64,000 nt of DNA from Burkholderiaceae bacterium (GCA_040401595.1 JBBAOE010000003.1:139459-203458); one strand, 5' to 3'. Counted from the first letter of the stretch, positions 1,748-21,937 are shown. Translations and numbers: made by a program. The notes: generated from the letters alone by a model not told the origin.

Positions 1748-1842
1748 GGTTGGTGTTCAGACTACTTCGAAGCGATAGCAACGGTTGATCCGATCTCGCC
1801 CGGTTATCCCCGCCATTGTTGATCGATGCCTCGACGCACTGT

Positions 1843-1872
1843 CCTGGAGAATTCTGGAGACCTCTGGAGAAT
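1843..1872 (+). repeat. Three tandem 10-bp units containing CTGGAGA
   Basis: The units are TCCTGGAGAAT, TCTGGAGACC and TCTGGAGAAT. CTGGAGA starts at 1844, 1854 and 1864, an exact 10-bp period. The last copy supplies a GGAGA Shine-Dalgarno 4 nt before ATG 1875. Confidence 0.6.
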
Positions 1873-1874
1873 TC

Positions 1875-3095: not shown

Positions 3096-3097
3096 AG

Positions 3098-4270: not shown

Positions 4271-4297
4271 ACGATTCGAGTTCAGTAGGATCCAGAC

Positions 4298-5230: not shown

Positions 5231-5272
5231 GCCGGTTCCAGTTTGCCTGTGCCGGTATTAAACGGAACGCCT

Positions 5273-5290
5273 TTGACGGGATCATGACAA
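5273..5290 (-). promoter_or_regulatory. Pho-box-like direct repeat upstream of the PlcP-like gene
   Basis: The minus strand reads TTGTCAT-gatc-CCGTCAA. It ends 43 bp upstream of ATG 5230, the same spacing as at phoD. Confidence 0.5.
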
Positions 5291-5299
5291 CTGATGGTT

Positions 5300-6193: not shown

Positions 6194-6243
6194 CGTTTCG
6201 TCAAATCCCAGTGTTATAAAACAGTGACAACATTGCGGAGGCG

Positions 6244-7902
6244 TTGAACATCATGGAAGCTTTAGCCATGTCTGCGTTGGCTCTCGGTACCCTGGCTGCA
6301 GGTTGGCCGGCCGCCTCGCAGCGAATTGCGCTGTCGCGGGCCAAACACCGCTCGCTGGCGGGTCACTCGAGAATGGCCAAGCGAGTGGCGTCGCTGATCC
6401 CTGGATACAGCTACGACGAGACTGGTTTTTTCGCGGCCGATGATGCATCCCCAGAAATCGTGGCGCGGCGACGCGCTGGTTTTCTCGATCTCTGCCAGAC
6501 GCTCGGAACGCGCCATGCCAAGACCATCGCCATGAGCGATCAGGCGCGCGACTATCTTCCCGATATGCAATTCACCGGTCGTTACCGGGTACCGTTTCAG
6601 TTCAGCCCGTACCTGCGCAGTCATCTTAAGCTGGGCAGCTTTGTGCAGTCGTCCGCTGGCGTGACGGTTGAGGATCTGGATGGCCAGAGATTCATGGATC
6701 TCACTGGTTCTTACGGTGTCAATGTATTTGGCTATGATTTCTATAAAGAAACGATTGCCGAAGGCGTTTCTCGCGTGGCTGAGCTGGGGCCAGTGCTGGG
6801 CGCCTACCATCCGGTCGTTCTGGATGTCATCAAGCGCCTGCGCGTCATCTCCGGGCTTGAGGAGGTGAGCTTCCACATGTCGGGCACCGAGGCGGTGATG
6901 CAGGCCGTGCGCGTTGCCCGTTACCGGTCCGGGCGGACGCATCTGGTCCGATTCTGCGGCGCGTATCACGGCTGGTGGGAGGACGTGCAACCTGGCCCGG
7001 GTAACCCCTTGCCGCCCCGACAAACCTATACGCTGCAGGACCTCTCTGAGCGGTCGTTGCGTGTGCTTGAGACGCGGCGCGATATTGCCTGTGTGCTGAT
7101 CAATCCGCTGCAGGCACTGCACCCCAACGCCAGCGCGCCTGGCGATTCGACCCTGGTCGACAGTTCGCGTCGGGCCGGATTTGATCGGGCCGCCTATGCG
7201 TCGTGGTTGCGTGAACTGCGTCGAATTTGTACCGCACGCGGTATCGCGCTGATTTTTGATGAGGTCTTTTTGGGGTTCCGGCTGGCACCGGGTGGTGCGC
7301 AGGAGTATTTCGGCGTGCAGGCGGATCTCGTCACCTACGGCAAGACGCTCGGCGGCGGCCTGCCGGTCGGTGTCGTGTGCGGCAAGCGCGAGTGGATGCA
7401 ACGTTTCAATGAGCAGCATCCGGCCGATCTCTGCTTTGCGCGCGGGACCTTCAACGCGCATCCACATGTGATGGGCGCAATGTTGTCGTTTTTGGAGCGA
7501 CTCGAAACGCCCGAGGTCCAGGCGATTTATGCTGATCTCGATAACACTTGGAACCGACGTGCGCAGGAGCTCAATGAGCGGCTCCGACAGGCTGGCGCTC
7601 CGGTGCGGGTCACGAATCTTTCGACGGTCTGGACGGTGCTCTACGACTCCCCGTCGCGCTACAACTGGATGTTCCAGTTCTACTTGCGGGCCGAAGGCTT
7701 GTTGCTCAGCTGGGTCGGCAGTGGCCGATTGATTTTCAGTCTGAACTATCACGACACTGATTTCGAAGAAGTGGCCGAGCGCTTTTGTCGCGCCGCACAG
7801 GCGATGCGACGCGACGGCTGGTGGTGGGAAGGATCGCAACTGAGCAATCAGCAGATTCGACGCACCCTGTTGCGGGAAATGCTGGGTCGGCTGCGCGCTT
7901 AA
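6244..7902 (+). CDS. Class-III (glutamate-1-semialdehyde aminomutase-like) PLP aminotransferase with an N-terminal extension
   Basis: Motifs: HMSGTEAVMQAVRVAR, FDEVFLGFR and YGKTLGGGLP (PLP lysine). At 552 aa it has about 100 extra N-terminal residues that begin with a hydrophobic stretch. The start is uncertain: TTG 6244, ATG 6253 or ATG 6268. Confidence 0.85.
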   Translation: MNIMEALAMSALALGTLAAGWPAASQRIALSRAKHRSLAGHSRMAKRVASLIPGYSYDETGFFAADDASPEIVARRRAGFLDLCQTLGTRHAKTIAMSDQARDYLPDMQFTGRYRVPFQFSPYLRSHLKLGSFVQSSAGVTVEDLDGQRFMDLTGSYGVNVFGYDFYKETIAEGVSRVAELGPVLGAYHPVVLDVIKRLRVISGLEEVSFHMSGTEAVMQAVRVARYRSGRTHLVRFCGAYHGWWEDVQPGPGNPLPPRQTYTLQDLSERSLRVLETRRDIACVLINPLQALHPNASAPGDSTLVDSSRRAGFDRAAYASWLRELRRICTARGIALIFDEVFLGFRLAPGGAQEYFGVQADLVTYGKTLGGGLPVGVVCGKREWMQRFNEQHPADLCFARGTFNAHPHVMGAMLSFLERLETPEVQAIYADLDNTWNRRAQELNERLRQAGAPVRVTNLSTVWTVLYDSPSRYNWMFQFYLRAEGLLLSWVGSGRLIFSLNYHDTDFEEVAERFCRAAQAMRRDGWWWEGSQLSNQQIRRTLLREMLGRLRA

Positions 7903-8105
7903 GTTGACCAAGCGCAGCCTCTATCGTATTTGGCGAGGGCTGCGCTCTGTTGCGTAAGCGGTGCGGTCTTCTCCGGGGCAGAACGGCCATTAGACAAGGC
8001 CGGCGCTTACGGCCTCAGCACCCAGACTTCAGATGTCTGTCGCGACTTCGTCGTTCCGTCCCGCTGTCCCGTGCTGTGACGTTCCAGGGGGGCCGCGCTG
8101 CGTGT

Positions 8106-8828
8106 TCAGGCGTGCCGATTGGACGGGTCGGTCACGTGGTCCATCGGGTCAATGCGCTGCCCCCGCAACAGAAAGAGCGGGGCCGTGTGGTACATCTTGA
8201 TGTCATGAAACGGGTCGGTGATGATCTTGAATGCCCAAGCGATCGCTGTTTTGGCGTCTCGGATCACGACCAGTTGTGCAACCCGGAACAGCAGGCCGCC
8301 AACCCCGATCGCGAACCAGACAAGACCGACCGAATGCCAGAACTCTGACATGGTGGTCCAGGCTGGGAGTGCACCAAACAGGTCCGGCACGAACCAGACG
8401 ACCAGGGGGCTCGCCGCCCACAATCCCATCAATACCACCTTGCGCATCAGGTTGTAGCCCACCTTGATTTCTTCCTTGTGCTCGTGGGTCGCTTGATTCA
8501 CCTCGTCGTAGCCTTTGGGCTCGAAGAAGAAATGTCCAGCCTGCCGACTCGTCATCGACACGCCCCATGCCAACAAGGCGGCATAGGCCGGGTCCACGAA
8601 CAAGAGCGCGTACGCCGTGACAAAGCACAGCGCGCTCAGGAGATGGAGGCTCTGGTTGATTCGGCAATGATGGTAGTAGCGATGATCGTCCCAGCGCAGG
8701 ACCGCGAGCGATTCAAAAAACTCTTTCACGTGGTTACCATCAAAAAGAATGACCTCAGGGTCTTCGGTCACAGTTGACAAAATCCAGCCGCTTGCCGCGA
8801 GCGCACTGCTTAGGGTGTGCCGCCTCAA
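8106..8828 (-). CDS. Polytopic membrane protein of unknown function (His-rich motif)
   Basis: It has several hydrophobic helices and a YYHHCRINQSLHLLSALCF motif, followed by AGHFFFEP. I could not place it in a family with confidence. The start (TTG 8828) is uncertain. Confidence 0.55.
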   Translation of the reverse strand: MRRHTLSSALAASGWILSTVTEDPEVILFDGNHVKEFFESLAVLRWDDHRYYHHCRINQSLHLLSALCFVTAYALLFVDPAYAALLAWGVSMTSRQAGHFFFEPKGYDEVNQATHEHKEEIKVGYNLMRKVVLMGLWAASPLVVWFVPDLFGALPAWTTMSEFWHSVGLVWFAIGVGGLLFRVAQLVVIRDAKTAIAWAFKIITDPFHDIKMYHTAPLFLLRGQRIDPMDHVTDPSNRHA

Positions 8829-8861
8829 ACGCTGCCATAAGGCTCATCTTGTCTAGGATTT

Positions 8862-8890
8862 GTGACATCTTGCTGACAGAAAAATGACGA
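8862..8890 (-). promoter_or_regulatory. Triple phased Pho-box-like array upstream of the membrane-protein gene
   Basis: The minus strand reads TCGTCAT-tttt-CTGTCAG-caag-ATGTCAC, three 7-mers at exact 11-bp phasing. Confidence 0.55.
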
Positions 8891-8917
8891 ATTGATGTCA
8901 TTTCTCGGTAGCATCGA

Positions 8918-8935
8918 CTGTCATCACATTGTCTC
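8918..8935 (+). promoter_or_regulatory. Pho-box-like direct repeat upstream of the glycosyltransferase gene
   Basis: The plus strand reads CTGTCAT-caca-TTGTCTC, with an additional ATGTCAT half-site at 8895-8901. It overlaps the TTG 8929 given in the ORF track, which argues for ATG 8959 as the true start. Confidence 0.4.
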
Positions 8936-8958
8936 AGTCCGCTTGCAGAATTCGGCTC

Positions 8959-10239
8959 ATGCCCGATGAAATCGCAGCTCTGTCCGTGGAATCCGATGGT
9001 GCGTCTGCGCGGCCCTTGCGGATCGCCTTCGTGACCGAGACCTACCCGCCCGAAGTCAATGGCGTGGCGATGACGCTGGCAGAACTCGTTCGACGCTTGC
9101 ACGCGCGACATCACCAGATTGAATTGATCCGGCCACGTCAGGGACATGAGGTTGCCGCACCGAAGTCCCCCGATTCCGATGGGGCGATCCTGGGTCATGG
9201 CCGGGCGCCCATTCGAGAAGTCCTGGTGCGTGGCATCCGGATTCCCCGCTACAGTCAGTTGAGGATGGGGCTACCCGCCAAAGGGGCATTGCTCCGGACA
9301 TGGACGACCCAACGTCCAGATGTCGTGCATATCGCGACCGAGGGGCCCTTGGGATGGTCAGCCCTGCAGGCTGCTCGAACCTTAAAGGTGCCGGTGAGCA
9401 CCGATTTCAGAACGAATTTTCATGCCTACAGTCGCCACTATGGGATGCGCTGGTTGCATAAGCCCATCATGGGGTACCTGCGCCAATTTCATAATCTCGC
9501 TCACAGGACTACGGTTCCGACCAAGACCTTGATGGGGGAGTTGTCGGCGTGCGGGTTCGAACGTCTGGTCGTGGTTGCCCGTGGGATTGATGCAGAGCGT
9601 TTTGATCCCCGACATCGCTGTATGGCACTGCGCCAGCGTTGGGGTCTGAGCCCGGATGATTTCGCAGTTCTGTATGTGGGTCGGCTGGCAGCTGAAAAAA
9701 ATCTCGAACTCCTCGCCCATGCCTTTGAAGCCATTGCAGTGGTGAACCCGCGGGCCCGCTTGATTCTGGTGGGCGACGGCCCGATGCGCTCGGCACTGCA
9801 GGCGCGTTTGCCGAACGCACTGTTCTGCGGGCAGCAGATGGGTCACGATCTTGCCCGCTGTTACGCCAGTGCCGACTTGTTTCTGTTCCCGAGTAAGACG
9901 GAAACGTTTGGGAATGTGACGGTCGAAGCGATGGCGAGCGGTTTGCCGGTGGTTGCTTTTGCAGACGGGGCTGCGCTCGAGTTGATCCGGCCCGGTCAGA
10001 ATGGCGCAAGCGTTGCGCTTGACGACGATGCGGGCTATGTCAGTGCGGCGACTCAACTTGCAGTGGACTCTGACGCCTGTCGGGCCCTGGGAGCAGTTGC
10101 ACGCGAGACAGCGTTACAACTTGATTGGGAGACGATCGTCGATCGTTTCGAAGTGGTGATTCGTTCTGCCGCTCACAGCGGGTTCGGGTCCGTTCCGACG
10201 GGAACGCTCAGTGCGCCCCGACCGATACCATCACGTTGA
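8959..10239 (+). CDS. GT4-family glycosyltransferase (Agt/SqdX-like glycolipid synthase candidate)
   Basis: The N-terminus reads RIAFVTETYPPEVNGVAMTL. The retaining GT-B motif is FPSKTETFGNVTVEAMASGLPVV (E-x7-E). Confidence 0.85.
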   Translation: MPDEIAALSVESDGASARPLRIAFVTETYPPEVNGVAMTLAELVRRLHARHHQIELIRPRQGHEVAAPKSPDSDGAILGHGRAPIREVLVRGIRIPRYSQLRMGLPAKGALLRTWTTQRPDVVHIATEGPLGWSALQAARTLKVPVSTDFRTNFHAYSRHYGMRWLHKPIMGYLRQFHNLAHRTTVPTKTLMGELSACGFERLVVVARGIDAERFDPRHRCMALRQRWGLSPDDFAVLYVGRLAAEKNLELLAHAFEAIAVVNPRARLILVGDGPMRSALQARLPNALFCGQQMGHDLARCYASADLFLFPSKTETFGNVTVEAMASGLPVVAFADGAALELIRPGQNGASVALDDDAGYVSAATQLAVDSDACRALGAVARETALQLDWETIVDRFEVVIRSAAHSGFGSVPTGTLSAPRPIPSR

Positions 10240-10678
10240 TGACGCCTGCGCGTTCGAATCTCAGACCCATCGAGTAGTTGCGGCCCCACTCCAATGGGGC
10301 TTTTAGACCCTTGAGTAGCAGATGGTATTCGCCGGCCTTGAACGCCATGTCGGCGCCTGCAAGCACCTGAATTGAAGATAGGGCTGGTGCACTGGCGTCC
10401 GGCCCACCGCGCAGTTCGACGCGGTCGGCCAGGGTGGTGTAGGCAGATAACAGACGATCATTTTTCGTGATGGATTCGAGAATCAGATAGATCGGTGCGT
10501 CGCGGGCTTGCGGCTCCGAGGCCTCGCCCCAGGGGTGCACGATGGTAAAACCGTCGGCGTAGTACTCGTGCGACTCGGCCGAGACTGCGGCCAGCGAGGC
10601 CAGAATCAACAATGCCAGTCGGGCACCGAGCCTAATCATGGGGTTCATCAAGGTCTTGGTAGCCATCGGAGAAGTCAT
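10208..10678 (-). CDS. Periplasmic PCu(A)C-like (DUF461-like) protein
   Basis: It has a Sec signal peptide (LASLAAVSA) and a small beta-rich mature part. YHLLLKGLKAPL is reminiscent of the PCuAC core, but the Met ligands are absent. ATG 10678 overlaps the upstream stop (ATGA). Confidence 0.45.
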   Translation of the reverse strand: MTSPMATKTLMNPMIRLGARLALLILASLAAVSAESHEYYADGFTIVHPWGEASEPQARDAPIYLILESITKNDRLLSAYTTLADRVELRGGPDASAPALSSIQVLAGADMAFKAGEYHLLLKGLKAPLEWGRNYSMGLRFERAGVINVMVSVGAH

Positions 10679-11298
10679 CCCGAAAATTGAATTGAATAGC
10701 CCCAGGAGTCCAGGCGCTGGGGGATCGCGTTAAACGCGAGCGTGACCCGCGTTGTGCCCTGGTTCACTGGTACTTCGTGCAGGAGAGAACTCGGGAACAG
10801 CACCAGATCGCCAGCGGCAGGCAAGGGACCCGCCCATTTCTCGGCGTTGAATGGACCTAGTTGGGTCTTGTCATGCATGTTGCTGAACACAAAATCGCGC
10901 CCGCCGAGACTGCGAATGAAGAGCGTATTCGCTGAGGCGTGGCATTCGCTCAGGTAGAGCACCCCAGAGATAAAGCAGTTCGCATGGTTGTGAACCGATT
11001 GCCGACCCCCGTGGCGCAGAACGTTGACCCACAATTCCTTGATGTGCCAGGTCAGAGGCTCACCGAACAGATGAATGCCAAACTCCACCAGTCTTGGCTG
11101 TAGGGTGACTGCAAGCTCTTCAAGGAGCTGGTCTCCACCCGGGTTCAGGATCGTGGTGTGGGTCAGTTCAGCCGATCGTGGATTTGCCTGAGCAGCCTCG
11201 GGTGCGAACCGCTCGCGCAGCGCAGTGACCCGCTCGGGCGCGACGGCCTTCTCCACACGCATGAATGGGGTCGGAAACAGCGGAATGATGTCGGGCAC
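10675..11298 (-). CDS. Putative 2OG-Fe(II) oxygenase-like protein (TIGR02466-type)
   Basis: Motifs: FPTPFM at the N-terminus, SVHNHANCFISGVLYL and LVLFPSSLLHEV. GTG start at 11298. Confidence 0.6.
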   Translation of the reverse strand: MPDIIPLFPTPFMRVEKAVAPERVTALRERFAPEAAQANPRSAELTHTTILNPGGDQLLEELAVTLQPRLVEFGIHLFGEPLTWHIKELWVNVLRHGGRQSVHNHANCFISGVLYLSECHASANTLFIRSLGGRDFVFSNMHDKTQLGPFNAEKWAGPLPAAGDLVLFPSSLLHEVPVNQGTTRVTLAFNAIPQRLDSWGYSIQFSG

Positions 11299-11361
11299 GA
11301 TCGGGGTTCGCTTCGTTGCTGTGGGCTAAGTTCTCAGGGATCGGTGATCCGTTTTCAGTGA

Positions 11362-12363
11362 TCAGGCCGGCCAGCCAACGATCACGGCGATTCGCGCCAA
11401 TGACCAGTAGGCGGCAATCGCCCCGATCCCGTAGAGCGCGGGCACTTTGAGTTGCGCCGCGAGTTTGGTGCGAACCAGCAGCAGGGTCAAACCCCAGGCC
11501 AGGGCCACCACCAGCAACTGGCCAGCCTCAACGCCCAGATTGAAGGTCAGTAGTGCCATCGAGACATGTTGTTCAGGCAGGCCAATTTCCTTCAAAGCGC
11601 CTGCGAACCCGAGACCATGAACAAGTCCAAATACAAAGGCAACCAGCGCCGGCCAGCGCCGGGTCCAGGTCTCGCGTTGGTAGAGCGCTTCGGCGCTGAC
11701 CAGGACGATCGACAGGGCAATCGAAGCCTCGACGGGCGGGGATCGCAGCACCAGGAGTCCGAGCGCACTGGCTGCAAGGGTCACGCTGTGTGCGAGCGTA
11801 AACGCCGTGATCGTCGCAATCAGGCGTTTACGAAATCCAACCAGAAACAAGAGGCTGATGACAAAGAGCAGATGATCGAAGCCGGTCAGGATATGTTCGA
11901 TCCCGAGTGAAAAATAGGCGGTAGCCACTTCGCTGCCGGCTCTCTCGTCCTTGGCGCTGCCAAAGAGCTGGACTTTGGGCTGTGCGCTCGTCAGAGTTAC
12001 CACTTGACGATCACCGCTTCGCCAATAGATCCGAACGATCGCGGCGGAATACGCTTTACCGACGCCCTGGATCGATAACATTCCGGCGAGCCCCTTGGGC
12101 CCACACTGGATCAGTTGTTGATCACCCGCGCACCCTTCGGGCCAGCTCGGGCTCAGATCCTCCCCGATCGGGCGGCCCCCCTTGCCGGCGGCGCCCCAGG
12201 ACCAGATGAACTGACCCGGTGCGACTTCGCGCATCGTCATTTCGGCCATGGTCAGCTCATGGGCGTGGGCCACTGAAACACCGAACCCTACCAGGGCGAC
12301 GAGGAGCATCAGGCGTTTCAGAAGCCATTGCGCCAGGGCGCTGAGCCCAGAGTTTGGCGCCAT
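11362..12363 (-). CDS. HupE/UreJ-like metal-transport membrane protein with an N-terminal periplasmic domain
   Basis: The signal peptide ends AHA|HE. The C-terminal half carries GFDHLLFVISLL, AFTLAHSVTLA and GLVHGLGFAG. ATG 12363 overlaps the upstream TGA by 1 nt. Confidence 0.7.
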   Translation of the reverse strand: MAPNSGLSALAQWLLKRLMLLVALVGFGVSVAHAHELTMAEMTMREVAPGQFIWSWGAAGKGGRPIGEDLSPSWPEGCAGDQQLIQCGPKGLAGMLSIQGVGKAYSAAIVRIYWRSGDRQVVTLTSAQPKVQLFGSAKDERAGSEVATAYFSLGIEHILTGFDHLLFVISLLFLVGFRKRLIATITAFTLAHSVTLAASALGLLVLRSPPVEASIALSIVLVSAEALYQRETWTRRWPALVAFVFGLVHGLGFAGALKEIGLPEQHVSMALLTFNLGVEAGQLLVVALAWGLTLLLVRTKLAAQLKVPALYGIGAIAAYWSLARIAVIVGWPA

Positions 12364-13241
12364 CAAGGCTTCACCTCTTCTTCGCGAATCTTGTACTTCT
12401 TACCCATTTCGCGAACCGCATTCGTACTGAGTTGGGCCATGGTGTCGTCGCGCCAATCCTGATAGATCGCGTCTTTGTTCTTGTCGAACTCGGCAGGCAC
12501 ACCAGGCTTGATTTCCTCTAGCTGTATCACCCGCAGCCCATCGGTACTTCCGATCAACTGCCAGACGCCAGGGGTCGACTTTTCAATGGCTTCGGTAAAC
12601 TCTGCCCCGTAGCTTTGCACCAGATTTTGCCGGGGGCGGTCCTTGAAGACCCGCAAGCTGCTTTCGGCGTCGATTTTCCCCTTGCCATTGAGCGCGGCAA
12701 CGAACTTCGTCAGGGCCTCAGGCGATCGATCACTGGTGACTACTGCTTCGAGAAAATTAAATCGTATTGGCGTGTCGTAGCGATCACGTTTGGATTCAAA
12801 CCATTTGCGAACGCCGGCTTCATCAATCTTGGGAAGGGTGAGTCCAGATTGGGTCACGCTCAGGGACTTGAAAATGATCCGGTCGCGGATTGCCGAATCG
12901 CCCCGGTCCAGACCCAGCGCCAGGCCTTCGCGATAGAGCACTTCGTTATCGACCCATCGATCCAGGAGTGTTTTCAGTTCGGCCTCGCTTGGCTCGCGCT
13001 TCAAGCCGCCGGTGAAAATGTCGTGGGCTTCTCTCTTGACCGATTTCGAGATCGTGATCGTTTGGGGGTCGTCCTTGTCAAGACTCAAGGTGTGGTCAAC
13101 GCCAAACACCAAAGCACCCAGCACCATAAAATGCAGCAAGGGTTCACGCAACATGCGGGACAGGGGGCCGTCTGTGCGGTTCGTCGAGGAGGCCGAAGCA
13201 GCACCTGGGACTGGGGCGTTTTGAGGATCCATGGAATTCAA
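12363..13241 (-). CDS. Membrane-anchored PpiC/SurA-like peptidyl-prolyl isomerase family protein
   Basis: EPLLHFMVLGALVFG forms an N-terminal anchor, and the rest resembles rotamase-type proteins that I recall as frequent neighbours of HupE-like genes (from memory). Alternative start is ATG 13232. Confidence 0.5.
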   Translation of the reverse strand: MNSMDPQNAPVPGAASASSTNRTDGPLSRMLREPLLHFMVLGALVFGVDHTLSLDKDDPQTITISKSVKREAHDIFTGGLKREPSEAELKTLLDRWVDNEVLYREGLALGLDRGDSAIRDRIIFKSLSVTQSGLTLPKIDEAGVRKWFESKRDRYDTPIRFNFLEAVVTSDRSPEALTKFVAALNGKGKIDAESSLRVFKDRPRQNLVQSYGAEFTEAIEKSTPGVWQLIGSTDGLRVIQLEEIKPGVPAEFDKNKDAIYQDWRDDTMAQLSTNAVREMGKKYKIREEEVKP

Positions 13242-13248
13242 CGAGGGT

Positions 13249-15915
13249 TCAGCGGGAGTTGGGGGATGGAGTCGGCCGGATCGCCGCCAGCGCGTTCAGG
13301 ACCTCACTGGCGACACCGGGTTCGTTACCCAGCAGGGACCGTGCAAGCGTGAACAGGGGATCGTACGCGGGCAGAAAATCGGGGCTTTGCTGGAGAATGT
13401 CCAATAAAGGCTCGCGTAATCGCAGGAGCATGTTTAGCGGGTCGGGATCGGGCCGCACTGTCAATCCCAATTCAATGTAGCGCGCCCGCGCCGACCCGTA
13501 GGCTTGCAGGCGTTGAAGCGTCTCCTCTGAGGCGTCACGCAAGACGCTATCGGGCTTCAGCTGCAGTTGATGGACGAGGGTCATCAGGCGGGTTCGTGGC
13601 GTTTCCGTAGGCGCATAGGTTTCCCACGGCGCATCATGAATCACGGCAGGCCGATCATCGGTGTTTGGCATGACCTGACCGGCGAACGCCCGCAGCTCCT
13701 CGGGTCCTGCAAGGATGCTGCCGAGAATGGCGTATTCGTCAACCACGCGCGCCTGTATCAGCGGCCGATGCAGCGCGGGGGCCGCTTTGAGCAGACTCGC
13801 CCGAACCCAGTCGGGATTCCAGCGCGGCTGATCCGGTCGCGAGAGCAAACCCAGCACGGGGGTGTCCAGACTGTTGCTCGCCAACACGGCGACCGCATCC
13901 GGATACACCTTCAAGAAGGCGGCAGTGATGCTGCGCACCGTCTGCAGGTTCATCTGATGGACCGCGAGCCACTGGCAAAATAATCCGCCGGGCGCTAGCT
14001 GTCGGCGAGCAGCTGCAAAATGCTCGACGGTATAGAGCGAGCCCGCGCCGCTGCGCGCCGGATGAAAGAGATCGGCAACGATGACGTCGTACTGTACCGG
14101 CGACGCCTGCACGTACCGTCGGGCATCGGCCGCGAGAATCTTCAGGGGCATGTCATCCCGCGCGGCGCTGGGTTTCGGCGCAAAGAACGCTGCAGCCTCA
14201 ATCACTTCGGGCAGCAACTCCACCGCAGTGACTTGCAAATCCGCGTTCAATGCGGCGGTCTGCGCCGTATGCCCTGTGCCAAGCCCTAGAAAGAGTGCGC
14301 TGCGTGGCGCCGGATGCAGCAGGATGGGTAGTTCAGCGAGCCGCACTTCCACCGGACTACGGGCACTGCTGCCTTCCTGAGTACGATTGTTGATCCGCAA
14401 GCGGGCGATGCCGCTTGGATCTTCAACGATGCTCACCGCTGCCATCGTGCCATCGCGATAACTCTGGAGCGTCGACCCCTCTGGCATGTCGACGAATCGC
14501 AGGGGCGACGCCCAGAGGCCAACTGCTATCGCTGCCAGTGCAGACAACGCGACGCGAGGCTGGAACCAATTGATTCTCGAATGTAGCGCGAGATAAGCGC
14601 CGATGATGATGCTCAAGATCCATTTCGGCCCAACCAGGGGGATCAGGCCGACGCCAAACAGGAGCGGTGCGCAGGCAGCCCCGGTGGTGTTGACAGCGAG
14701 CGCTCGCCCGAGCGGCCAGGACTGCGCTTGAGCGCGCTGGCACAGATGGGTGAAGAGCGCGCCCATGATCAGGGTCGGGGCCAACATCGCGGCGACCGCC
14801 GTCAAGGCCTCACCGGTCAGTGCAGTGAGCGCGCTCGCGCCAAAGGTACGTGCCGGCCATGCGCAGATGACATCCGCCCACCACAGCGTTGCGCCGCCCA
14901 ACAAAATCGCGGCGGCGAGGCCTTGAATCAGCGTGCTCTCGGTGGCGTCGTTTGCTGGTGGTTTGCGCGCTTGCAGGAGGGCAGCGCCCAGTGCAGTCCC
15001 CAGCAAATAAACCGCCAGCAAGAGTGCGTAGCTGTAGACCGTATTTTCGGTGACCTGGCTCAGAACGCGCACCGCGAGCACTTCGTAACCGATGCCGAGT
15101 AGCCCGGTGAAGAACAGGACTCGGCCAATGACCGGATGCTGGGTGTCTGCGCCCGGCGTCATCGCATTGCGTGCTGTGGTTTGATCCTTTGCAGGGGTGG
15201 CCATAGCCTCCAGTGGCGTTCGCCAGAGCGACAAGGCCAGTACAGCGCAAGCTGCATTGATCGCGCTGCACACCCAAGCGGTTTGTTGCAGTCCGAGCGT
15301 CGGCATAGCCACAAACACGACCGCCAAGACACCCAGTACCGCACCGAGGGTGTTCGCGGCATACAGCCCGCCGAGTCGACTCGCGGCGCCCGATAGTTGA
15401 CGCTCAATCGCGGGTAGCGTTGCACCCATCGCAGCGGTTGCCGGCAGCAGCAGCAGCATGGGAAAGCCAAACGCGAGGCACCAGTGCCAGAGGCTCGAAG
15501 GCTGCGCGCCGATCATTGCGTGGGTGGTGTGATTGAACCAGGGCAATAGGGCTGTCAGGACCAGCCCCCACAGCGCGATGAGTGTCTCAAGGGCGGCGTA
15601 CCAACGGCCCGGGACCCGACTGGCGGCAATCGATCGCCCCAACACAAAGGCGCCGATTGCCAGTCCGCCGAAGAACGCAGCAAGAACGGCGAGCACGGCA
15701 ATGATCTCGTGCCCCAGTGCTGTCGCCAGTTGCGCGCTCCAGAGCATTTGCCAGGCAAGCGACACGGCGCCCGAGAGCGCCATCAATAGGTAAGGCAACA
15801 GAGGACCTTTCAGCGCAGTGAGTCGACGCGTTGAGTAAGCGATCGACGAAAACGAAAAACCGGCCGCAGGGCCGGTGGTCAGGCCATGGTCACGAGCCCG
15901 AAGGCCCGTAACCAT
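13249..15915 (-). CDS. Fused polytopic membrane domain / spermidine-synthase-like aminopropyltransferase fold protein
   Basis: The 888-aa protein has an N-terminal half of about 450 aa that is highly hydrophobic. The C-terminal half carries LFLGLGTGHT, YDVIVADLFHP and GGLFCQW (SpeE-like SAM fold), followed by a helical repeat-like tail. Confidence 0.75.
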   Translation of the reverse strand: MVTGLRARDHGLTTGPAAGFSFSSIAYSTRRLTALKGPLLPYLLMALSGAVSLAWQMLWSAQLATALGHEIIAVLAVLAAFFGGLAIGAFVLGRSIAASRVPGRWYAALETLIALWGLVLTALLPWFNHTTHAMIGAQPSSLWHWCLAFGFPMLLLLPATAAMGATLPAIERQLSGAASRLGGLYAANTLGAVLGVLAVVFVAMPTLGLQQTAWVCSAINAACAVLALSLWRTPLEAMATPAKDQTTARNAMTPGADTQHPVIGRVLFFTGLLGIGYEVLAVRVLSQVTENTVYSYALLLAVYLLGTALGAALLQARKPPANDATESTLIQGLAAAILLGGATLWWADVICAWPARTFGASALTALTGEALTAVAAMLAPTLIMGALFTHLCQRAQAQSWPLGRALAVNTTGAACAPLLFGVGLIPLVGPKWILSIIIGAYLALHSRINWFQPRVALSALAAIAVGLWASPLRFVDMPEGSTLQSYRDGTMAAVSIVEDPSGIARLRINNRTQEGSSARSPVEVRLAELPILLHPAPRSALFLGLGTGHTAQTAALNADLQVTAVELLPEVIEAAAFFAPKPSAARDDMPLKILAADARRYVQASPVQYDVIVADLFHPARSGAGSLYTVEHFAAARRQLAPGGLFCQWLAVHQMNLQTVRSITAAFLKVYPDAVAVLASNSLDTPVLGLLSRPDQPRWNPDWVRASLLKAAPALHRPLIQARVVDEYAILGSILAGPEELRAFAGQVMPNTDDRPAVIHDAPWETYAPTETPRTRLMTLVHQLQLKPDSVLRDASEETLQRLQAYGSARARYIELGLTVRPDPDPLNMLLRLREPLLDILQQSPDFLPAYDPLFTLARSLLGNEPGVASEVLNALAAIRPTPSPNSR

Positions 15916-15929
15916 GTTCGCGGGTCAGA

Positions 15930-18065
15930 TTACTTGACGCCGGCAACCTTGCTCGAACCCAAAACTTCGACGTAGACCGGGTTGCTGTAGAACCAGAGGT
16001 CAGACCAGGCAACGACGTCAGAACTCGAGTACTTGACGCCAGCGACCGTACGCATGTGGGCTGGGCATGCTGCGTCGCCACAAGGGATTGCCCCCGGGAG
16101 GGTCTGGTCGTTCGGAGCCACTAGGAAGTCATTCAGTGGATTGCCCTCAGCATCGGTCTCGAACGGCACCGATGCTGGGATGTTGGTTCCGCGCAGACGG
16201 AAGTACTGCGATGCTTTCACAGCCGGAACCCGATAGGTCATCGTGCGGACACCATCCGCTGAAGCCGTCCAATTCGTTGAATTGAAGGTTTTCTGGATCT
16301 TCGCCGAGGCATTGAAGATCTTTGCGGGGAATTCGGCTGCTGTCACCGCAGGCGCATAGGCGCCCTGATCAGCAGGATCAATGTAGCCCGTGACATTGCC
16401 ACCGATCAGATCAACGTGATCGAGCACCGGCGCATTCAGAGGCTGGATGATGTTGACCTGCTTGAGGGACGGATTCGGGAAGCTGTAAGGTGATGCGTTC
16501 GTGCCCTGCGGATCGCGCAGAGAGACGGTGACGAACAGGTCGGTACCCGGGCGAACGACGAGCTTTTCGCCCATGGTGGCGCAACCGTCGATCCGCACCT
16601 CACCATTACCGGCAACCGCATTGGCAGACGCTTTCTCGATCAGTGCCTTGTTGGCATTGCGCGGCAGGCCTGGGTTCGACGCGCAGACCACGAACGACAG
16701 GCGATCGATCAGTTGCCCATTGGCAACGTAGCTGTTGCCACTGCGCAGACCGTCGATGATGCCTTCGGCGGTCAGGTTGCCTGTGCCCTTGCGAACCATG
16801 ACATAGTCATTGGTGTATTCGCCGGGGTAGAAATCGTTGTCGGTTTCGCGCTGGTCGGGACCGAAGGTGCCACGGCTGTGGTAGTCCGAGCTTGCAAAGA
16901 ACCACCAGTTACGGCCTTCGCCCAGCAGACCGTCCCATAATCCACCGATCTTGGCCGCGTAAACGCCCGTGCCGCCAAAGGTGCCGCCGCCTACAGCGTT
17001 CGACGAATAGCTGCCGCGCGGGGATTCCGCACCGTGGCCAGGCATTGACTCGAAACCAAACGCAATCTTTGGGGCTACGTTGTTGAAATTACGCAGGTGC
17101 TCGATGTTGAAGCCGTTGTTGCCGGTCGGGTTATAGATGCCGGCACGCTCGAGGTGGGCTGGAACGAAGTAGGACGTCGTTGGCGCCTTCTCGTTCAACC
17201 ACTTGAGGCCTTCCAAGGTCTTGATATGCCCCATGTTGGGGTACTTGGCGGTGTTGGTTCCGCTCAAGTTGTCAGTCGGCGCGATTTTGGCGGACAGGGG
17301 ATTGATCAGCGTGTTGTTCGAGCTGCCGGTGACCGAGCAATCCCAGAGGTTCTCAGCGCCGCGGCTGGTGTCGGTATCACTGCGATCAAAGCAATATTCG
17401 TATTGCGCCTGAAGGTTGGCGTTACCGGTTGTTGCGGTCGACGGCCAGGGTGCCTGACCTTTAAGCACGGCCATCGAGGTGTGCTCATGGCCGGGGTTGT
17501 TTTGCTCGAGTCCGATCCAGACTGGCTTCTTCGCATCACGGCCAAGGGTTTCAAGGGCTTTGTATTGATATTCCTTGATCTCCTGCCAGCGCCACATCTG
17601 CTTCGGTGTAGCGGTTCCGTCGCCCTTGATGGCGGCGAGGCCAATCGTGGATTCCCAGGTCTGGTTCGGTCCTTTGAGAGCCGAGGCGGGCTGGCCAGCC
17701 CCCGGGTAGGTCACTGGTGGCGAAGCCTGCCAGGGGCCGGTGGCGCTGGTGGTCAGTCCCAGACCGGGCGCGACCGGCTCAAACGGGTCTTCGGCCAGCG
17801 TACAGTTTCGAGCGCTGCGGCCACCGTGGTCGGCCTGGACGAACCAGTCGAGCTTCCAGGTGTTGACCGATTTGTCGACCAGCTTCTTGAGCGAAAGCGA
17901 GCCATCCGAGCAAGTCGAGTGGTTGTGGAAGTCACCGGTGACATAGGTGCCAGCGGCCTTGGTGGCGGCCTTTGGGGCAGCCGAGGCTTGCGGGGCAAGG
18001 GTCACGACGGTCGTGATGGCGGCGATCGCAACAGCGACTTCGCGCATTTTAAACTGGGGCTTCAT
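15930..18065 (-). CDS. Secreted PHP-domain (polymerase/histidinol-phosphatase fold) metal-dependent phosphoesterase-like protein
   Basis: The signal peptide ends QASA|AP. Ordered PHP-like motifs are GDFHNHSTCSDGS, FVQADHGG, GLEQNNPGHEH, VPAHLER and ASSDYHS. A long beta-rich C-terminal region follows. Confidence 0.6.
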   Translation of the reverse strand: MKPQFKMREVAVAIAAITTVVTLAPQASAAPKAATKAAGTYVTGDFHNHSTCSDGSLSLKKLVDKSVNTWKLDWFVQADHGGRSARNCTLAEDPFEPVAPGLGLTTSATGPWQASPPVTYPGAGQPASALKGPNQTWESTIGLAAIKGDGTATPKQMWRWQEIKEYQYKALETLGRDAKKPVWIGLEQNNPGHEHTSMAVLKGQAPWPSTATTGNANLQAQYEYCFDRSDTDTSRGAENLWDCSVTGSSNNTLINPLSAKIAPTDNLSGTNTAKYPNMGHIKTLEGLKWLNEKAPTTSYFVPAHLERAGIYNPTGNNGFNIEHLRNFNNVAPKIAFGFESMPGHGAESPRGSYSSNAVGGGTFGGTGVYAAKIGGLWDGLLGEGRNWWFFASSDYHSRGTFGPDQRETDNDFYPGEYTNDYVMVRKGTGNLTAEGIIDGLRSGNSYVANGQLIDRLSFVVCASNPGLPRNANKALIEKASANAVAGNGEVRIDGCATMGEKLVVRPGTDLFVTVSLRDPQGTNASPYSFPNPSLKQVNIIQPLNAPVLDHVDLIGGNVTGYIDPADQGAYAPAVTAAEFPAKIFNASAKIQKTFNSTNWTASADGVRTMTYRVPAVKASQYFRLRGTNIPASVPFETDAEGNPLNDFLVAPNDQTLPGAIPCGDAACPAHMRTVAGVKYSSSDVVAWSDLWFYSNPVYVEVLGSSKVAGVK

Positions 18066-18127
18066 GTCGATGAAATCCTGTAGATCAATGGTGGGGGTCT
18101 GCGTCAGGCCGTGGATGGCGCTGAGGC

Positions 18128-18616
18128 TTAAACGTTCTTCTGGTCGCCGAACAGGCGTACCTTGCCGCTGCTGAACTTCACCGGGATGGTGTAGGTCGTG
18201 GTCGTCGTGTCAACGTCGGTGTTCGTGACCGTCGCGGTCAGCGTGCAGACGCCGTTGGCATCACATCCAGATACCGTTACGCCCGATAAGTCGGCGATTG
18301 GGAAGGCCGACAAATCGGCCGCAACCGCAACCGCGAAGGATTCCTGAGTCAGGTTGTCTTTCAACGCCTGTTTGGTGTAACCAGCGTCCAGAAACGCGTC
18401 ATCGAAGAGGTCGACGAATCCACTGCTGGTCAGGCCGCTGAAGGACTTGAGCCCTGCGATCCCGGCGTTATAGCTGGCGGTGAACGCTGCTACCTGATCG
18501 GTCGTTGGGGCAGTGCTGGTGGAACCTGAGCTTGTTGACGAGTCACCACCGCAAGCGGTTAGCAGGCTCAGCAGGCCAGCGGCGAGCGACAGCTGGGCGG
18601 TCTTGCAAATTGTCAT
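18128..18616 (-). CDS. Lipoprotein of unknown function
   Basis: This is ORF 18128..18691 trimmed to ATG 18616. It reads MTICKTAQLSLAAGLLSLLTACGG (lipobox LTAC), followed by a Ser/Thr-rich linker. Confidence 0.65.
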   Translation of the reverse strand: MTICKTAQLSLAAGLLSLLTACGGDSSTSSGSTSTAPTTDQVAAFTASYNAGIAGLKSFSGLTSSGFVDLFDDAFLDAGYTKQALKDNLTQESFAVAVAADLSAFPIADLSGVTVSGCDANGVCTLTATVTNTDVDTTTTTYTIPVKFSSGKVRLFGDQKNV

Positions 18617-18762
18617 GAGATCGCAACCTTCAAAAAATCTTGGGGGGGTCCGGTGGGAACCGGTTTTGTTTTGCATTCGGCCAGTCCGCAAGGTAGGTGC
18701 GCCGATGGCACTACCCCACTCAAACTGAGGAGGGATTGTCCGGTCGGGCCCATGACGCTCGT

Positions 18763-18791
18763 GTGACGTTCAAATAAACGTTTTATGACGG
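18763..18791 (-). promoter_or_regulatory. Triple phased Pho-box-like array upstream of the lipoprotein-PHP operon
   Basis: The minus strand reads CCGTCAT-aaaa-CGTTTAT-ttga-ACGTCAC, three 7-mers at 11-bp phasing. The first 11 nt match the enterobacterial CTGTCATAAAA apart from one base. Confidence 0.55.
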
Positions 18792-18994
18792 CACTGCCCG
18801 AGTTGCCGAGCTTGCCTTCGGGCTGGTTCACCCAGGCTTACATTCAGTTGTAAGAATGGTTGCCAGTGGATGCATGATTCTGGCGCTCATCAGGGAAAAC
18901 CTGGGGGCTGGGATCAGGCCAAAGCCTGCCGGCGGTGAGCTTGTCGCAGTATCCTTCTCGGGTCATTGAACAAGTAAGTCTTCAGGAGACACCC

Positions 18995-19477
18995 TTGAGC
19001 CATTCCACCGAATCCCTTGCTCTGACCGTCAACGGTCGCGCCGTGAAGGTCGACGTCGATCCCCGGACCCTGTTGGTTCAGTTGATCCGCGACCAACTTC
19101 ATCTCACTGGCACCCATGTTGGCTGCGACACCGCTCAGTGCGGAGCGTGCACCGTGCATCTCAACGGCCGCGCGATCAAGTCCTGCTCGATCCTCGCCGT
19201 GCAGGCACAAGGTGCCGACATCACCACGATCGAGGGGCTCAGTCACGACGGTGAACTCCATCCCATGCAGGCTGCGTTTCGCGAATGCCACGGGCTGCAA
19301 TGCGGTTTCTGTACGCCAGGCATGGTCATGTCGGCGGTGCAATTGCTCGAGGATCATCCGAATGCCAGCGAGCAGGAAATCCGCGAGGGTCTTGAGGGCA
19401 ACATCTGTCGGTGCACGGGTTACCACAACATCGTCAAGTCGATCCAGCGCTGCCAGGCTGGCCACGCCACTGCCTAA
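18995..19477 (+). CDS. coxS: Aerobic-type Mo-hydroxylase small subunit, (2Fe-2S)-binding
   Basis: Motifs: [20 protein letters not shown] and [12 protein letters not shown] 18995 with GGAGA 5 nt upstream gives a typical protein of about 160 aa. The ORF track starts earlier, at GTG 18935. Confidence 0.9.
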
Positions 19478-19491
19478 TAGGGAAAGCAATC

Positions 19492-21855
19492 ATGACTGAC
19501 TTGTCGAATTCGCCGATCGGGCAATCGATCCTGCGCCGCGAGGACTACCGCTTCCTGACCGGTGCTGGCCAGTACACAGACGACGTCGTTCTGCCAGGCC
19601 AAAGCTATGGCTACTTCCTGCGTAGCCCCCACGCCCATGCCCGTATCAAATCGATCGACCTCACTCGTGCCGCTGCCGCCGAGGGCGTCCTGCACATCTT
19701 TACCGGTGCTGATCTGGCCGAAGCCAAGGTCGGCGGCCTACCCTGTGGCTGGCTGATCCACAACAAGGACGGCAGCCCGATGAAGGAGCCTGCGCACCCG
19801 GTGCTCGCGCAGGGCAAGGTGCGCCATGTGGGTGACCAGGTCGCGCTGATCGTCGCTGAAACAGCCAGCCTGGCCAAAGATGCAGCGGAGCTGATCGATA
19901 TCGATTACGAAGTGCTGCCGGCCGTGATTGATCTGGCGCATGCCGAAAGCAACGCGACGCTGGTGCACGACGAGGTACCGCACAACACCTGCTACGACTG
20001 GGGCCACGGCGACAAGGCTGCGGTGGACGCAGCATTTACGCATGCCGCCAAAGTCACCAAGCTGAGCTTTGCCAACAACCGTCTGGTTCCGAATGCCATG
20101 GAGCCGCGAGCGGCCAATGCGCAGTACACCAAGCACGATGACAGTTACACGCTGTACGTCTCGAACCAGAATCCGCACGTCGAGCGCCTGCTGATGTGTG
20201 CGTTCGTGCTGGGACTGCCCGAATCCAAGGTGCGCGTGATTGCGCCCGATGTGGGCGGTGGATTTGGTTCAAAGATTTATCTGTATGCCGAGGAAACCGC
20301 GCTAGTCTGGGCGAGCAAGCGCGTCGGGCGCCCCATCAAATGGACGGCCGATCGCAGCGAAGCGTTCCTGACCGACGCTCATGGCCGTGACCACCTCTCG
20401 ACCGCTGAACTGGCGATGGACGCCCAGGGCCACTTTCTGGCCTTGCGGGTGCACACCGTGGCCAATATGGGCGCATATCTGTCGACCTTCTCAACCTGTG
20501 TGCCGACGATCCTGTACGCCACGCTGTTGGCCGGTCAGTACAAGACACCGGCCATCTACTGTGAAGTGAAGTCGGTATTCACCAACACCGCACCCGTGGA
20601 TGCGTACCGTGGGGCTGGGCGTCCGGAGGCGACCTTCCTGGTCGAGCGGATCGTTGAAACCGCGGCACGTGATATGGGCCTTGATCCGGCCGAGATCCGT
20701 CGTCGCAACTTCATCACGCAGTTCCCGTATGCCACGCCCGTTGGCCTGACCTACGATACCGGTGACTATGAGGCGCACCTGTCCAAGGCGATCGAACTCG
20801 CTGACGTCGCTGGGTTTGCCGCTCGCAAGGCCGCGTCGAAGGCCCACGGCAAGCTGCGCGGTCTGGGCTACAGCTGCTACATCGAAGCCTGCGGTCTCGC
20901 GCCCAGCAACATCGCGGGTGCGCTTGGGGCCCGTGCCGGCCTCTTTGAAGCCGGTGAGGTGCGCGTGCACCCCACGGGCACGGTCACCGTATTCACCGGT
21001 TCGCACAGCCATGGTCAGGGCCATGAGACGACCTTTGCGCAGGTCGTCGCCGCCAAGCTGGGCATTCCGGTCGAGAGCGTCGAGATCGTTCACGGCGACA
21101 CCGGGCGCGTTCCGTTCGGAATGGGCACCTATGGCAGTCGTTCCCTGGCGGTCGGGGGCTCTGCGATCGTGAAAGCGGTGGACAAGATCATCGCGAAAGG
21201 CAAGAAGATTGCCGCTCACCTGCTTGAGGCCGCCGACACCGATATCGAATTCGAGAATGGTGAGTTCGTGGTGGCTGGGACCGATAAGAAAGTCCCATTC
21301 GGGTCTGTGGCGCTCACCGCCTATGTGCCTCACAACTATCCCCTGGACAAGCTCGAACCTGGCCTGAACGAAAACGCCTTCTACGATCCGACTAACTTCA
21401 CCTACCCCTCGGGGACCTATGTCTGTGAAGTCGAGGTCGATCCCGAGACCGGGGTGACCCGGGTCGATCGATTCACCGCGGTCGATGATTTCGGCAATAT
21501 CATCAATCCGATGATCGTGTCCGGGCAGGTCCATGGTGGATTGGCCCAAGGTCTGGGTCAGGCGATGCTTGAGGGCTGTACCTACGATCCCGAGTCAGGG
21601 CAGTTGTTGACGGGTTCGTTCATGGACTACACCATGCCCCGCGCCGATGATCTGCCGAACTTTGTGGTTGACCACACGGTCACGCCCTGCACGCACAATC
21701 CTCTGGGCGTGAAGGGATGCGGTGAGGCGGGGGCAATTGGATCGCCACCGGCATTCATCAATGCGCTGACCGATGCCCTTGGGGTGCGCGACGTTGCCAT
21801 GCCAGCCACGCGTGAGCGGGTCTGGCGCGCAGCCCACGGGCTCGCTGCCGCTTGA
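19492..21855 (+). CDS. coxL: Mo-hydroxylase large subunit, form II CoxL-like (xanthine dehydrogenase family)
   Basis: ATG 19492 reads [18 protein letters not shown]. The active-site loop is [12 protein letters not shown], the form II AYRGAGR signature rather than form I AYXCSFR. Confidence 0.9.
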
Positions 21856-21937
21856 GCTTGAGGCTTCGTTCGTCGGATATCAACGATACGGTCTGCGGGC
21901 TTGACTAAAGCGCCCGCAGGTCTACAGGAGAACTGAG

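Follow-up and report, generated by a model that had tools for sequence, protein, structure and literature searches.

A gene cluster behind Pho boxes in Burkholderiaceae and related bacteria that encodes a putative exported PHP-like metallohydrolase with candidate folding and metal-handling proteins

Bacterial exoenzymes mineralise organic phosphorus, thereby controlling the supply of phosphate in soils and fresh waters, and the known enzymes PhoA, PhoX, PhoD and PafA tie this mineralisation to the availability of zinc, iron and calcium. A cluster of seven genes, g1 to g7, in a 64,000-nt stretch of DNA (the window) from Burkholderiaceae bacterium (GCA_040401595.1 JBBAOE010000003.1:139459-203458) resembles the operons of Pho-regulon phosphatases (PhoX, PhoD, PhoA and the PlcN/AcpA type) in having Pho boxes phased at 11 bp that replace the -35 element, an exported metallohydrolase among its first products, a hairpin and terminator after the abundant gene (as with pstS), and neighbours associated with phosphate stress. 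Its regulation and general logic, an exported metallohydrolase behind Pho boxes, are of a kind already known; for the enzyme family of g2, which belongs to no known alkaline-phosphatase family, as for the accessory set and for the g6/g3 pair, no description was found in the literature. To our knowledge, there is no known phosphatase operon with a peptidyl-prolyl isomerase (PPIase), a HupE/UreJ-2 permease, a PCuAC-fold protein, a 2-oxoglutarate (2OG) oxygenase and a protein resembling both the major facilitator superfamily (MFS) and aminopropyltransferases. The explanation that we favour, if cautiously, is that of a PhoB-controlled exported phosphoesterase with its own metallation and folding partners, accompanied by an unexplained g6/g3 pair.

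Several described families bear on the individual products. In PHP phosphoesterases of the YcdX type, the metal ligands follow the order HxH, H/D, H, E, H, H, DxH. Work of the Helmann laboratory in 2023 is said to have found that TerC-family proteins mediate the metalation of exoenzymes during their secretion in Bacillus. The "anglerase" domains of Ang-1/Ang-2-HupE/UreJ-2 proteins bind Cu2+ (Kd ~60-75 nM) and Ni2+ by an N-terminal histidine, His1, and the Ang-2 types are often encoded next to metallophosphatases (PMC12537917, 2025). In PCuAC domains of the 6P1G/PmoF1 type, copper is reported to be held by a histidine brace (Fisher et al. 2019, cited through PMC10952591). A literature search returned no description of the cluster; in a paper on Synechococcus PCC 7002, a PHP gene and a HupE/UreJ gene, both unrelated to those considered here, respond oppositely.

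Gene content, conservation and transcript layout

All seven of the minus-strand open reading frames (ORFs) claimed in a preliminary description of this DNA were found, running from position 18616 down to 10208. Together with the signals that accompany them, they are as follows (aa, amino acids).

18752..18790, minus strand: Pho-box array, CGTCAT / GTTTAT / CGTCAC / CGTCAT, four 6-bp half-sites, equal to two PhoB boxes
18735..18740, minus strand: candidate -10 element GACAAT, predicted from sequence, 11 nt 3' of the final half-site
18128..18616, minus strand: g1, 162-aa lipoprotein of no known family; lipobox LLTAC|GG with the ATG 18616 start
15930..18065, minus strand: g2, 711 aa; Sec-type signal peptide, PHP-type ligand pattern, C-terminal beta-sandwich domains
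15885..15916, minus strand: conserved 14-bp hairpin just 3' of the g2 stop; contains the ATG at 15915 formerly read as the g3 start
15849..15876, minus strand: intrinsic terminator (terminator scan), stem 15876-15859 ACCGGCC-CTGC-GGCCGGT followed by TTTTTCGTTTT; T-run to 15849
13249..15798, minus strand: g3, 849 aa; polytopic MFS-like domain, spermidine-synthase-fold S-adenosylmethionine (SAM)-dependent transferase and C-terminal helical domain
12363..13241, minus strand: g4, 292-aa protein resembling PPIases/chaperones of the PpiC type (Rotamase_2); hydrophobic stretch at the N-terminus
11362..12366, minus strand: g5, HupE/UreJ-2 permease (PF13795, E 1.4e-45) with a periplasmic N-terminal domain
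10675..11298, minus strand: g6, cytoplasmic 2OG-Fe(II) oxygenase, 2OG-FeII_Oxy_5 (PF13759/TIGR02466)
10208..10678, minus strand: g7, exported PCuAC-fold protein (PF04314, 51.6 bits against a cut-off of 29.4)

The families previously named for g3 (fused MFS/spermidine-synthase-like), g4 (Rotamase_2), g5 (HupE_UreJ_2), g6 (2OG-FeII_Oxy_5) and g7 (PCuAC) were recovered with Pfam or NCBIfam, whereas the PHP assignment of g2 found no Pfam match.

Relatives of g2 were found in 327 loci or species genomes, and the best 80 of these 327 (1.42 Mb) were analysed, the partner genes being located by tblastn with the seven proteins. Forty loci with at least 8 kb on each flank were regarded as full; they comprise 7 of a close clade (clade A) and 33 of clade B. 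The closest relatives of the locus are metagenome-assembled genomes of freshwater Betaproteobacteria/Burkholderiales, the g2 product being 96% identical to that of locus L001 and 88% identical to those of L002 and L027. The Comamonadaceae plasmid CP099604.1 carries an identical cluster, for which the Prokaryotic Genome Annotation Pipeline supplies generic names only. Carriers extend over Burkholderiales, Rhodocyclales-type, Thiobacillaceae and Competibacteraceae genomes.

Both g4 and g5 were present in 40/40 full loci, g6 in 38/40, g3 in 35/40 and g7, at the tblastn threshold, in 25/40. The order g1-g2-g3-g4-g5-g6-g7 is that of the close clade; the other loci are arranged as g7-g2-g4-g5 plus g6-g3, the latter pair lying downstream or divergently upstream. 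Through these rearrangements the blocks g2-(g3)-g4-g5 and g6-g3 remained unbroken, with g4 directly after g2 or g3 in all 40 full loci, and even remote g2 relatives (37-38% identity) still adjoin Rotamase_2 and HupE_UreJ_2 genes. With the cluster conserved in so many genomes, the possibility raised earlier that the genes are adjacent in this genome only fails, and the combination is supported by comparison as a conserved functional unit.

The gene for the g1 lipoprotein was found in 6/40 full loci (6/7 in clade A, 0/33 in clade B), and was confined to loci with a g2 identity of at least 57%. Apart from a PEP-CTERM protein, found at 38 loci, and a TonB-dependent receptor, found at 12, an all-against-all clustering of ORFs identified no further widely kept neighbour. 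The former, of approximately 210 aa, is encoded divergently from g7/g2 at clade-B loci, as in L022 (9112-9750, minus strand) and L032 (8915-9508, minus strand), and its gene has its own Pho box in 17 of the 38 loci; in clade B, it may be the counterpart of g1.

The half-sites of the Pho-box array lie on the minus strand at 18790-18785 (CGTCAT), 18779-18774 (GTTTAT), 18768-18763 (CGTCAC) and 18757-18752 (CGTCAT), in an exact 11-bp register (CGTCAT-aaaac-GTTTAT-ttgaa-CGTCAC-acgag-CGTCAT) of which the second member is weak and degenerate. The triple array proposed earlier at 18763-18791 is hence real and, with four half-sites from 18790 to 18752, slightly larger. A generic scan for sigma-70 promoters detected no -35/-10 pair on the minus strand, as is expected because the Pho box takes the place of the -35 element at PhoB-dependent promoters. 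Within the window, YGTCAY-N5-YGTCAY with no more than one mismatch occurred 15 times against 5.0 +/- 2.3 expected, a count reached by 0/100 shuffles. A scan of the 80 loci for this motif at 11/12 or more matches, in 250-bp bins, gave densities of 0.66-0.72 per bin for the pair of bins immediately upstream of g2 and g1/g7 and of 0.01-0.05 elsewhere, an enrichment of approximately 25-fold upstream of the cluster. The few perfect sites outside the cluster precede genes for a PF04185 phosphoesterase (E 2.5e-77; PlcN/AcpA-type), PhoX and a 5'-nucleotidase. Because the Pho box is kept upstream of orthologues and also stands before these classical enzymes of the Pho regulon, the predicted control of the cluster by PhoB is well supported by comparison, and the phosphate control suggested in the preliminary description gains strong support from this phylogenetic footprinting.

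The 5' untranslated region (UTR) was not unusually structured (z = +0.4), and an Rfam scan of 10000-19000 returned no match. Within the 5' UTR region of g1, a small GC hairpin followed by TTTTGTTTTG was observed on the plus strand at 18650-18663, where no plus-strand gene ends; its minus-strand form is the only stable element of the g1 leader.

Short or overlapping junctions on one strand connect g1 to g7 except between g2 and g3. The intervals of 62 nt (g1-g2), 7 nt (g3-g4) and 63 nt (g5-g6), the TGATG overlap of g4/g5 and the ATGA overlap of g6/g7 were as reported before, whereas the gap of 14 bp given for g2-g3 is really approximately 131 nt. Nor did the claim stand that no terminator-like structure separates the genes, given that a hairpin and an intrinsic terminator follow g2 at 15916-15849. 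The RNA fold has an energy of -55.9 kcal/mol (z = -3.9), and the stem at 15916-15885 shows compensatory changes, from CATGG/CCATG to CAGGG/CCCTG in L002 and to CACGG/CCGTG in L027. In the alignment of L001, L002 and L027, the ATG at 15915 is not conserved, being AGG or ACG in relatives; in L027 this stretch is out of frame with g3, and both L002 and L027 have a deletion of 36-37 nt right after the T-run. The revised start of g3 is most likely TTG 15798, behind a putative ribosome-binding site GAAAGG at 15811-15806, with ATG 15783 as the alternative; with g3 starting at TTG 15798, the spacer of 131 nt holds both hairpin and terminator.

A hairpin and T-run within 125 nt after g2 were detected in 45/77 loci, whatever gene comes next, against a background of 2.5% of random 260-nt windows. 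As this conserved terminator follows g2, the earlier view of one seven-gene transcript free of internal terminators was not upheld, and the transcript is probably punctuated at this point, so that the enzyme would be in excess while read-through supplies the accessory genes. The terminator itself is probably leaky, acting as an attenuator or as a 3'-stabiliser of the g1-g2 mRNA. The pst operon shares this layout, a stem-loop after its abundant first product attenuating the downstream genes. At the far end of the cluster, g7 (minus strand) runs towards a GT4 gene on the plus strand; the two genes share their last 32 nt, at 10208-10239, with no terminator between the convergent units.

The exported hydrolase and its candidate partners

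In an alignment of 50 sequences extending to 30% identity, the residues of g2 found to be conserved were D45, H47, H49, D54, H80, E187, H195, H304, E339, H344, D394 and H396. The nine at PHP positions (H47, H49, D54, H80, E187, H195, H304, D394 and H396) are invariant or conserved in at least 90% of the sequences, and their order reproduces that of the nine PHP metal ligands. The N-terminal D-x-H-x-H...SDG...DH pattern and nine-ligand order match those of the PHP phosphoesterases (YcdX, TrpH/RNase AM, histidinol phosphatase and the PHP domain of PolX) and of CehA/McbA; g2 differs from all of these in being approximately three times larger, with long insertions and C-terminal beta-sandwiches, and in being exported. 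At the level of the family, the CehA/McbA model matches 49/50 relatives at E<=0.01 (best 1.4e-21), the PolX-PHP model and the PHP-domain model 14/50 each, and Pfam PHP (PF02811) 8/50. For g2 itself, there was a weak match to an NCBIfam PHP N-terminal model (E 0.0037) and, in a profile search of the PDB, to 9etk (E 0.031, N-terminus only); phmmer and profile searches against PDB sequences gave nothing beyond this 39-residue match to the N-terminus of PHP. The earlier label of PHP was not confirmed by Pfam for g2 itself, and draws on motifs and on evidence from the family. An AlphaFold2 model built from 50 diverse sequences (predicted local distance difference test, pLDDT, 87.9; predicted TM-score 0.89; pLDDT 43 with 18 close homologues) places the ligands on alternating beta/alpha elements, and a Foldseek search gave weak Ig/FnIII-like matches only, to the C-terminal beta-sandwiches. 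The description that suits the g2 product best is that of an exported metallohydrolase, PHP-like but divergent, of which no relative has a solved structure.

The family of g2 is large, with at least 1024 clusters at 50% identity (E<=1e-3) and 278 at E<=1e-30 in a search of representatives, and has no Pfam model. Many of its members are surface or secreted multidomain proteins with type IX secretion system tails or with SLH, cohesin or dockerin modules, and relatives encoded on plasmids are annotated as 'phosphoesterase'. That g2 is most likely a phosphoesterase we infer from its ligands, from the Pho box and from the fusions and annotations of relatives. In one relative, the giant surface protein P0141 (2127 aa), a calcineurin-like phosphoesterase, Big_2/aBig_2, DUF7402, a g2-like domain and SLH repeats are fused.

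Among the products encoded with g2, that of g4 has an N-terminal hydrophobic stretch that is possibly a membrane anchor, and a hydropathy scan called no transmembrane segment in it. In g5, the mature N-terminus is predicted to begin with His at +1 and Glu at +2, with A, S or G at -1, in 71/71 homologues, all 71 of which also have the HupE transmembrane signature H-x3-G-x-DH. The layout of the anglerases is thereby found in g5, namely a signal peptide and a PF13795 permease behind a non-cytoplasmic domain that starts with an invariant His1, and its position by g2 parallels that of Ang-2 types by metallophosphatases; its N-terminal domain shows no detectable sequence similarity to the solved Ang-1 domain (9GCE), has an invariant Glu2 and two Cys, and the other partner genes differ. 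This resemblance to the anglerases is one of architecture, and does not establish family membership by sequence.

The product of g7 passes as a PCuAC-domain protein (PF04314), as had been proposed, but three of the four canonical Cu(I) ligands are absent. The site H(M)X10MX21HXM is not present, VELR standing for VELH and YHLLL for HxM, and there is no Met loop. What g7 does carry is the N-terminal HEY...HPW signature common to histidine-brace PCuAC domains: its N-terminal region SHEYYADGFTIVHPW was aligned with MHEYAVGKIKIEHPW of 6P1G, and the predicted mature N-terminus HEYYADGFTIVHPW aligns with both 6P1G and PmoF1. The product of g7 is like the histidine-brace PCuAC proteins PmoF1 and Methylosinus PCuAC in fold, in a mature His-Glu-Tyr, in a second His within HPW and in having no Met-rich Cu(I) site, and unlike them in its context, a Pho-regulated hydrolase cluster in place of methane or ammonia monooxygenase. 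Homologues of g7 have His1 in 15 cases and Cys1 in 23, with an HPW-like motif in 44/48. In clade B, the first residue is Cys and the signal peptides are of the twin-arginine type (23/23); this N-terminal Cys might have denoted a lipoprotein, which was rejected given the preceding A-R-A, the twin-arginine leaders and the absence of a lipobox. On these comparisons, g7 is a candidate histidine-brace PCuAC-type protein.

The proposal that the enzyme is expressed with its own metal-supply and folding helpers gains support because g4 and g5 accompany g2 in 40/40 full loci and also at 37-38% identity, and because the N-terminal-His signatures of g5 and g7 match those of characterised Cu/Ni-binding proteins. 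The features of g4, g5 and g7 and their constant linkage to g2 are consistent with a set of proteins dedicated to folding and metallating the enzyme outside the cytoplasm. In concept, this is the same as TerC of Bacillus, a membrane transporter that loads secreted enzymes with metal; the protein families are unrelated, and metal export by g5 is hypothetical.

Weighing the explanations

In the explanation favoured here, a PhoB-dependent promoter at ~18.75 kb would drive g1-g2, and the hairpin and terminator after g2 would let only part of the transcripts into g3-g7, so that the enzyme would be made in excess over the accessory proteins. With its PHP-type trinuclear-site ligand set, g2 would act in the periplasm or on the cell surface, where it would free phosphate from some organic compound of phosphorus. 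Because it would cross the membrane unfolded, it would have to fold and gain its metals outside the cytoplasm, where g4, as an exported or membrane-anchored PPIase-type chaperone, would be its dedicated folding partner, and where g5, with its His1 metal-capturing periplasmic domain and permease, and g7, with its histidine brace, would serve as metal-delivery partners. The direction and the identity of this metal traffic, and any role of g3 and g6, we likewise infer. The g6 and g3 genes would form a second, co-regulated pair, which might make a small compound of the amine type, or modify an envelope component, and move the product across the membrane under phosphate stress.

A number of findings weigh against this explanation. 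A Pfam search of g2 gave no match even at E<=10, and the Pfam PHP matches among its relatives cover just the first 40-66 positions of the profile. The CehA/McbA model (NF038032) scored 36.4 bits with g2, over residues 376-461 only, against a cut-off of 80; being below this cut-off, g2 is a distant relative of that family and not a member. CehA and McbA, the only relatives known to have been characterised, are carbamate esterases and not phosphatases. An hhalign comparison of g2 with E. coli YcdX gave a probability of 28% over 40 columns, and a whole-chain Foldseek search of the model against the PDB found no structure at E<=0.001, PHP or other. As for the partners, phmmer of g5 against all PDB sequences returned no match at E<=10, including the Ang-1 domain 9GCE, and those HupE-type permeases that are known work as importers, a direction of no obvious use to a periplasmic enzyme. 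Histidine-brace proteins favour Cu and Ni, which are not typical metals of PHP sites. In the colinear arrangement, expression of g3-g7 hinges on unproven read-through. Finally, partner genes were not found alongside the g2 relative of 35% identity (P0144), and a relative from Bacteroidota (P0152) and other distant ones are without all of the partner genes; P0152 and P0144 thus rule out the idea that every relative of g2 carries the partners.

A possible, if doubtful, alternative is that two separate Pho-regulated modules lie together, g7-g2-g4-g5 comprising the enzyme and its helpers, and g6-g3, independent of g2, making or modifying a phosphorus-free component of the membrane or envelope, or a secreted amine or metallophore. 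In clade B, g6 is always paired with g3, and the pair is transcribed apart from the rest, often divergently, behind Pho boxes of its own; in the window, the terminator parts g2 from g3. The sequence of g3 also speaks for two modules. It matches PF01564 (43 bits) and the fused MFS/spermidine synthase model NF037959 (57 bits against a cut-off of 40), has about 12 hydrophobic segments over residues 40-475, and keeps a conserved SAM-type site (LFLGxGTGxT, VELLPEV, ADARR and DxFHPAR), with FCQWL as a further motif of the transferase domain. The Asp of GGGDG and the second Asp (the base) of DSTDP, which are specific to spermidine synthases dependent on decarboxylated SAM, are not present, and all of the spermidine synthase equivalog models scored far below their cut-offs; lacking these residues, g3 is by its sequence not a canonical aminopropyltransferase. 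The family of g6 is known only from the structural-genomics entries 3BVC and 2RG4. Genes of BtaA-type (DUF3419), PlcP-like, phosphatidylserine-decarboxylase-like and GT4 lipid proteins with Pho boxes, which neighbour the cluster, would also agree with two modules. Against this, g3 and g6 lie within a few kb of g2 in 35-38/40 full loci from several bacterial orders, which is tighter than co-regulation needs, and they match no characterised lipid or metallophore enzyme. What these data do not support is a part for g3 and g6 in maturation of the enzyme; of the proposed helper set, it is the sub-module g7-g2-g4-g5 that gained support.

It is improbable that the cluster is instead a system for the acquisition or handling of a trace metal (Cu or Ni/Co), with g2 unrelated to phosphorus scavenging and phosphate control reflecting a raised demand for metal. 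The histidine-brace PCuAC signature of g7 and the His1-HupE/UreJ-2 architecture of g5 would be at home in such a system, as would the homologous TonB-dependent receptor that adjoins the cluster in 12/80 loci and that, on CP099604.1, comes after nikR. The loci are as follows.

L088 (CP099604.1), 6052-8705: TonB-dependent receptor
L014, L017, L018, L019, L025, L029, L034, L035, L053, L056, L071 and L074: TonB-dependent receptor

A Pho box was found at 1/12 of the receptor genes, which suggests metal-responsive control and led to its rejection as a member of the Pho unit; as a minority feature, its placement hints at a metal-responsive supply, possibly of Ni. However, the neighbourhood is organised around g2, directly behind the Pho boxes, the same Pho box precedes classical phosphatases in these genomes, nikR occurs at one locus only, and the receptor is present in a minority.

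That the repeats are recognised not by PhoB but by another regulator of the OmpR family, and so answer to a different signal, is very improbable. The core is mostly CGTCAY, as opposed to TGTCAY in E. coli, but TGTCAY and CGTCAY are freely interchanged among orthologous promoters, a Pho box is matched by the half-site, by its phasing at 11 bp and by its place next to a -10 element without a -35, and the motif stands before PhoX, the PlcN/AcpA-type phosphoesterase and the 5'-nucleotidase. Chance adjacency of unrelated genes that form no functional unit is refuted by the 35-40/40 full loci in which g3 to g6 stay with g2 despite rearrangements, across Burkholderiales, Rhodocyclales-type, Thiobacillaceae and Competibacteraceae genomes.

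Surrounding genes and significance

Further genes and Pho-box-like sites lie on either side of the cluster in the window.

1587-1603, minus strand: Pho-box-like site
1731-1747, plus strand: Pho-box-like site
1785-3095, plus strand: DUF3419/BtaA-type protein
3092-4270, plus strand: unassigned ORF overlapping the DUF3419 stop
4298-5230, minus strand: calcineurin-like phosphoesterase (PlcP-like)
5273-5289, minus strand: Pho-box-like site
5300-6193, minus strand: phosphatidylserine-decarboxylase family protein
8106-8828, minus strand: polytopic protein with a weak Mpo1-like match
8862-8900, minus strand: second Pho-box array, TGACAT-caatt-CGTCAT-ttttc-TGTCAG-caaga-TGTCAC, four phased half-sites between the 8106-8828 and GT4 genes
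8919-8935, plus strand: Pho-box-like site
8929-10239, plus strand: GT4 glycosyltransferase
18935-19477, plus strand: [2Fe-2S] small subunit of a molybdenum hydroxylase
19411-21855, plus strand: molybdenum-cofactor large subunit of the same
21938-22732, plus strand: flavin adenine dinucleotide subunit of the same

The region 1785-10239 is a probable Pho-regulated island for the remodelling of membrane lipids. From the adjacent lipid genes and the further Pho boxes, the operon would thus lie in a phosphate-stress island that appears to remodel lipids. A triple box matching the second array is present in L027 at 9470-9497. The molybdenum hydroxylase set, of the CoxSLM/xanthine-dehydrogenase type (18935-22732), is divergent from the operon and has the intergenic region 18617-18934 in common with the Pho promoter.

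The cluster adds a further widespread candidate enzyme family to those known to act on organic phosphorus, one that occurs with metal-handling and folding genes under a Pho box in hundreds of species of the Burkholderiales type. If the favoured explanation is true, g2 would represent a new phosphatase class and a physiological client of His1-HupE/UreJ-2 and histidine-brace PCuAC proteins, and co-limitation by metal and phosphorus would become testable at one operon. A bolder extension, which we consider rather unlikely, is that g2 is the first member of a new class of exoenzymes for phosphate starvation, the metal of which is installed extracytoplasmically by the PhoB-controlled g5, g7 and g4 products, with g6/g3 exporting an amine-type metal-binding feeder. 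If this were so, the cluster would encode the first phosphatase-specific metallochaperone system and would tie phosphorus scavenging directly, at the genetic level, to the supply of trace metals of the Cu/Ni type.

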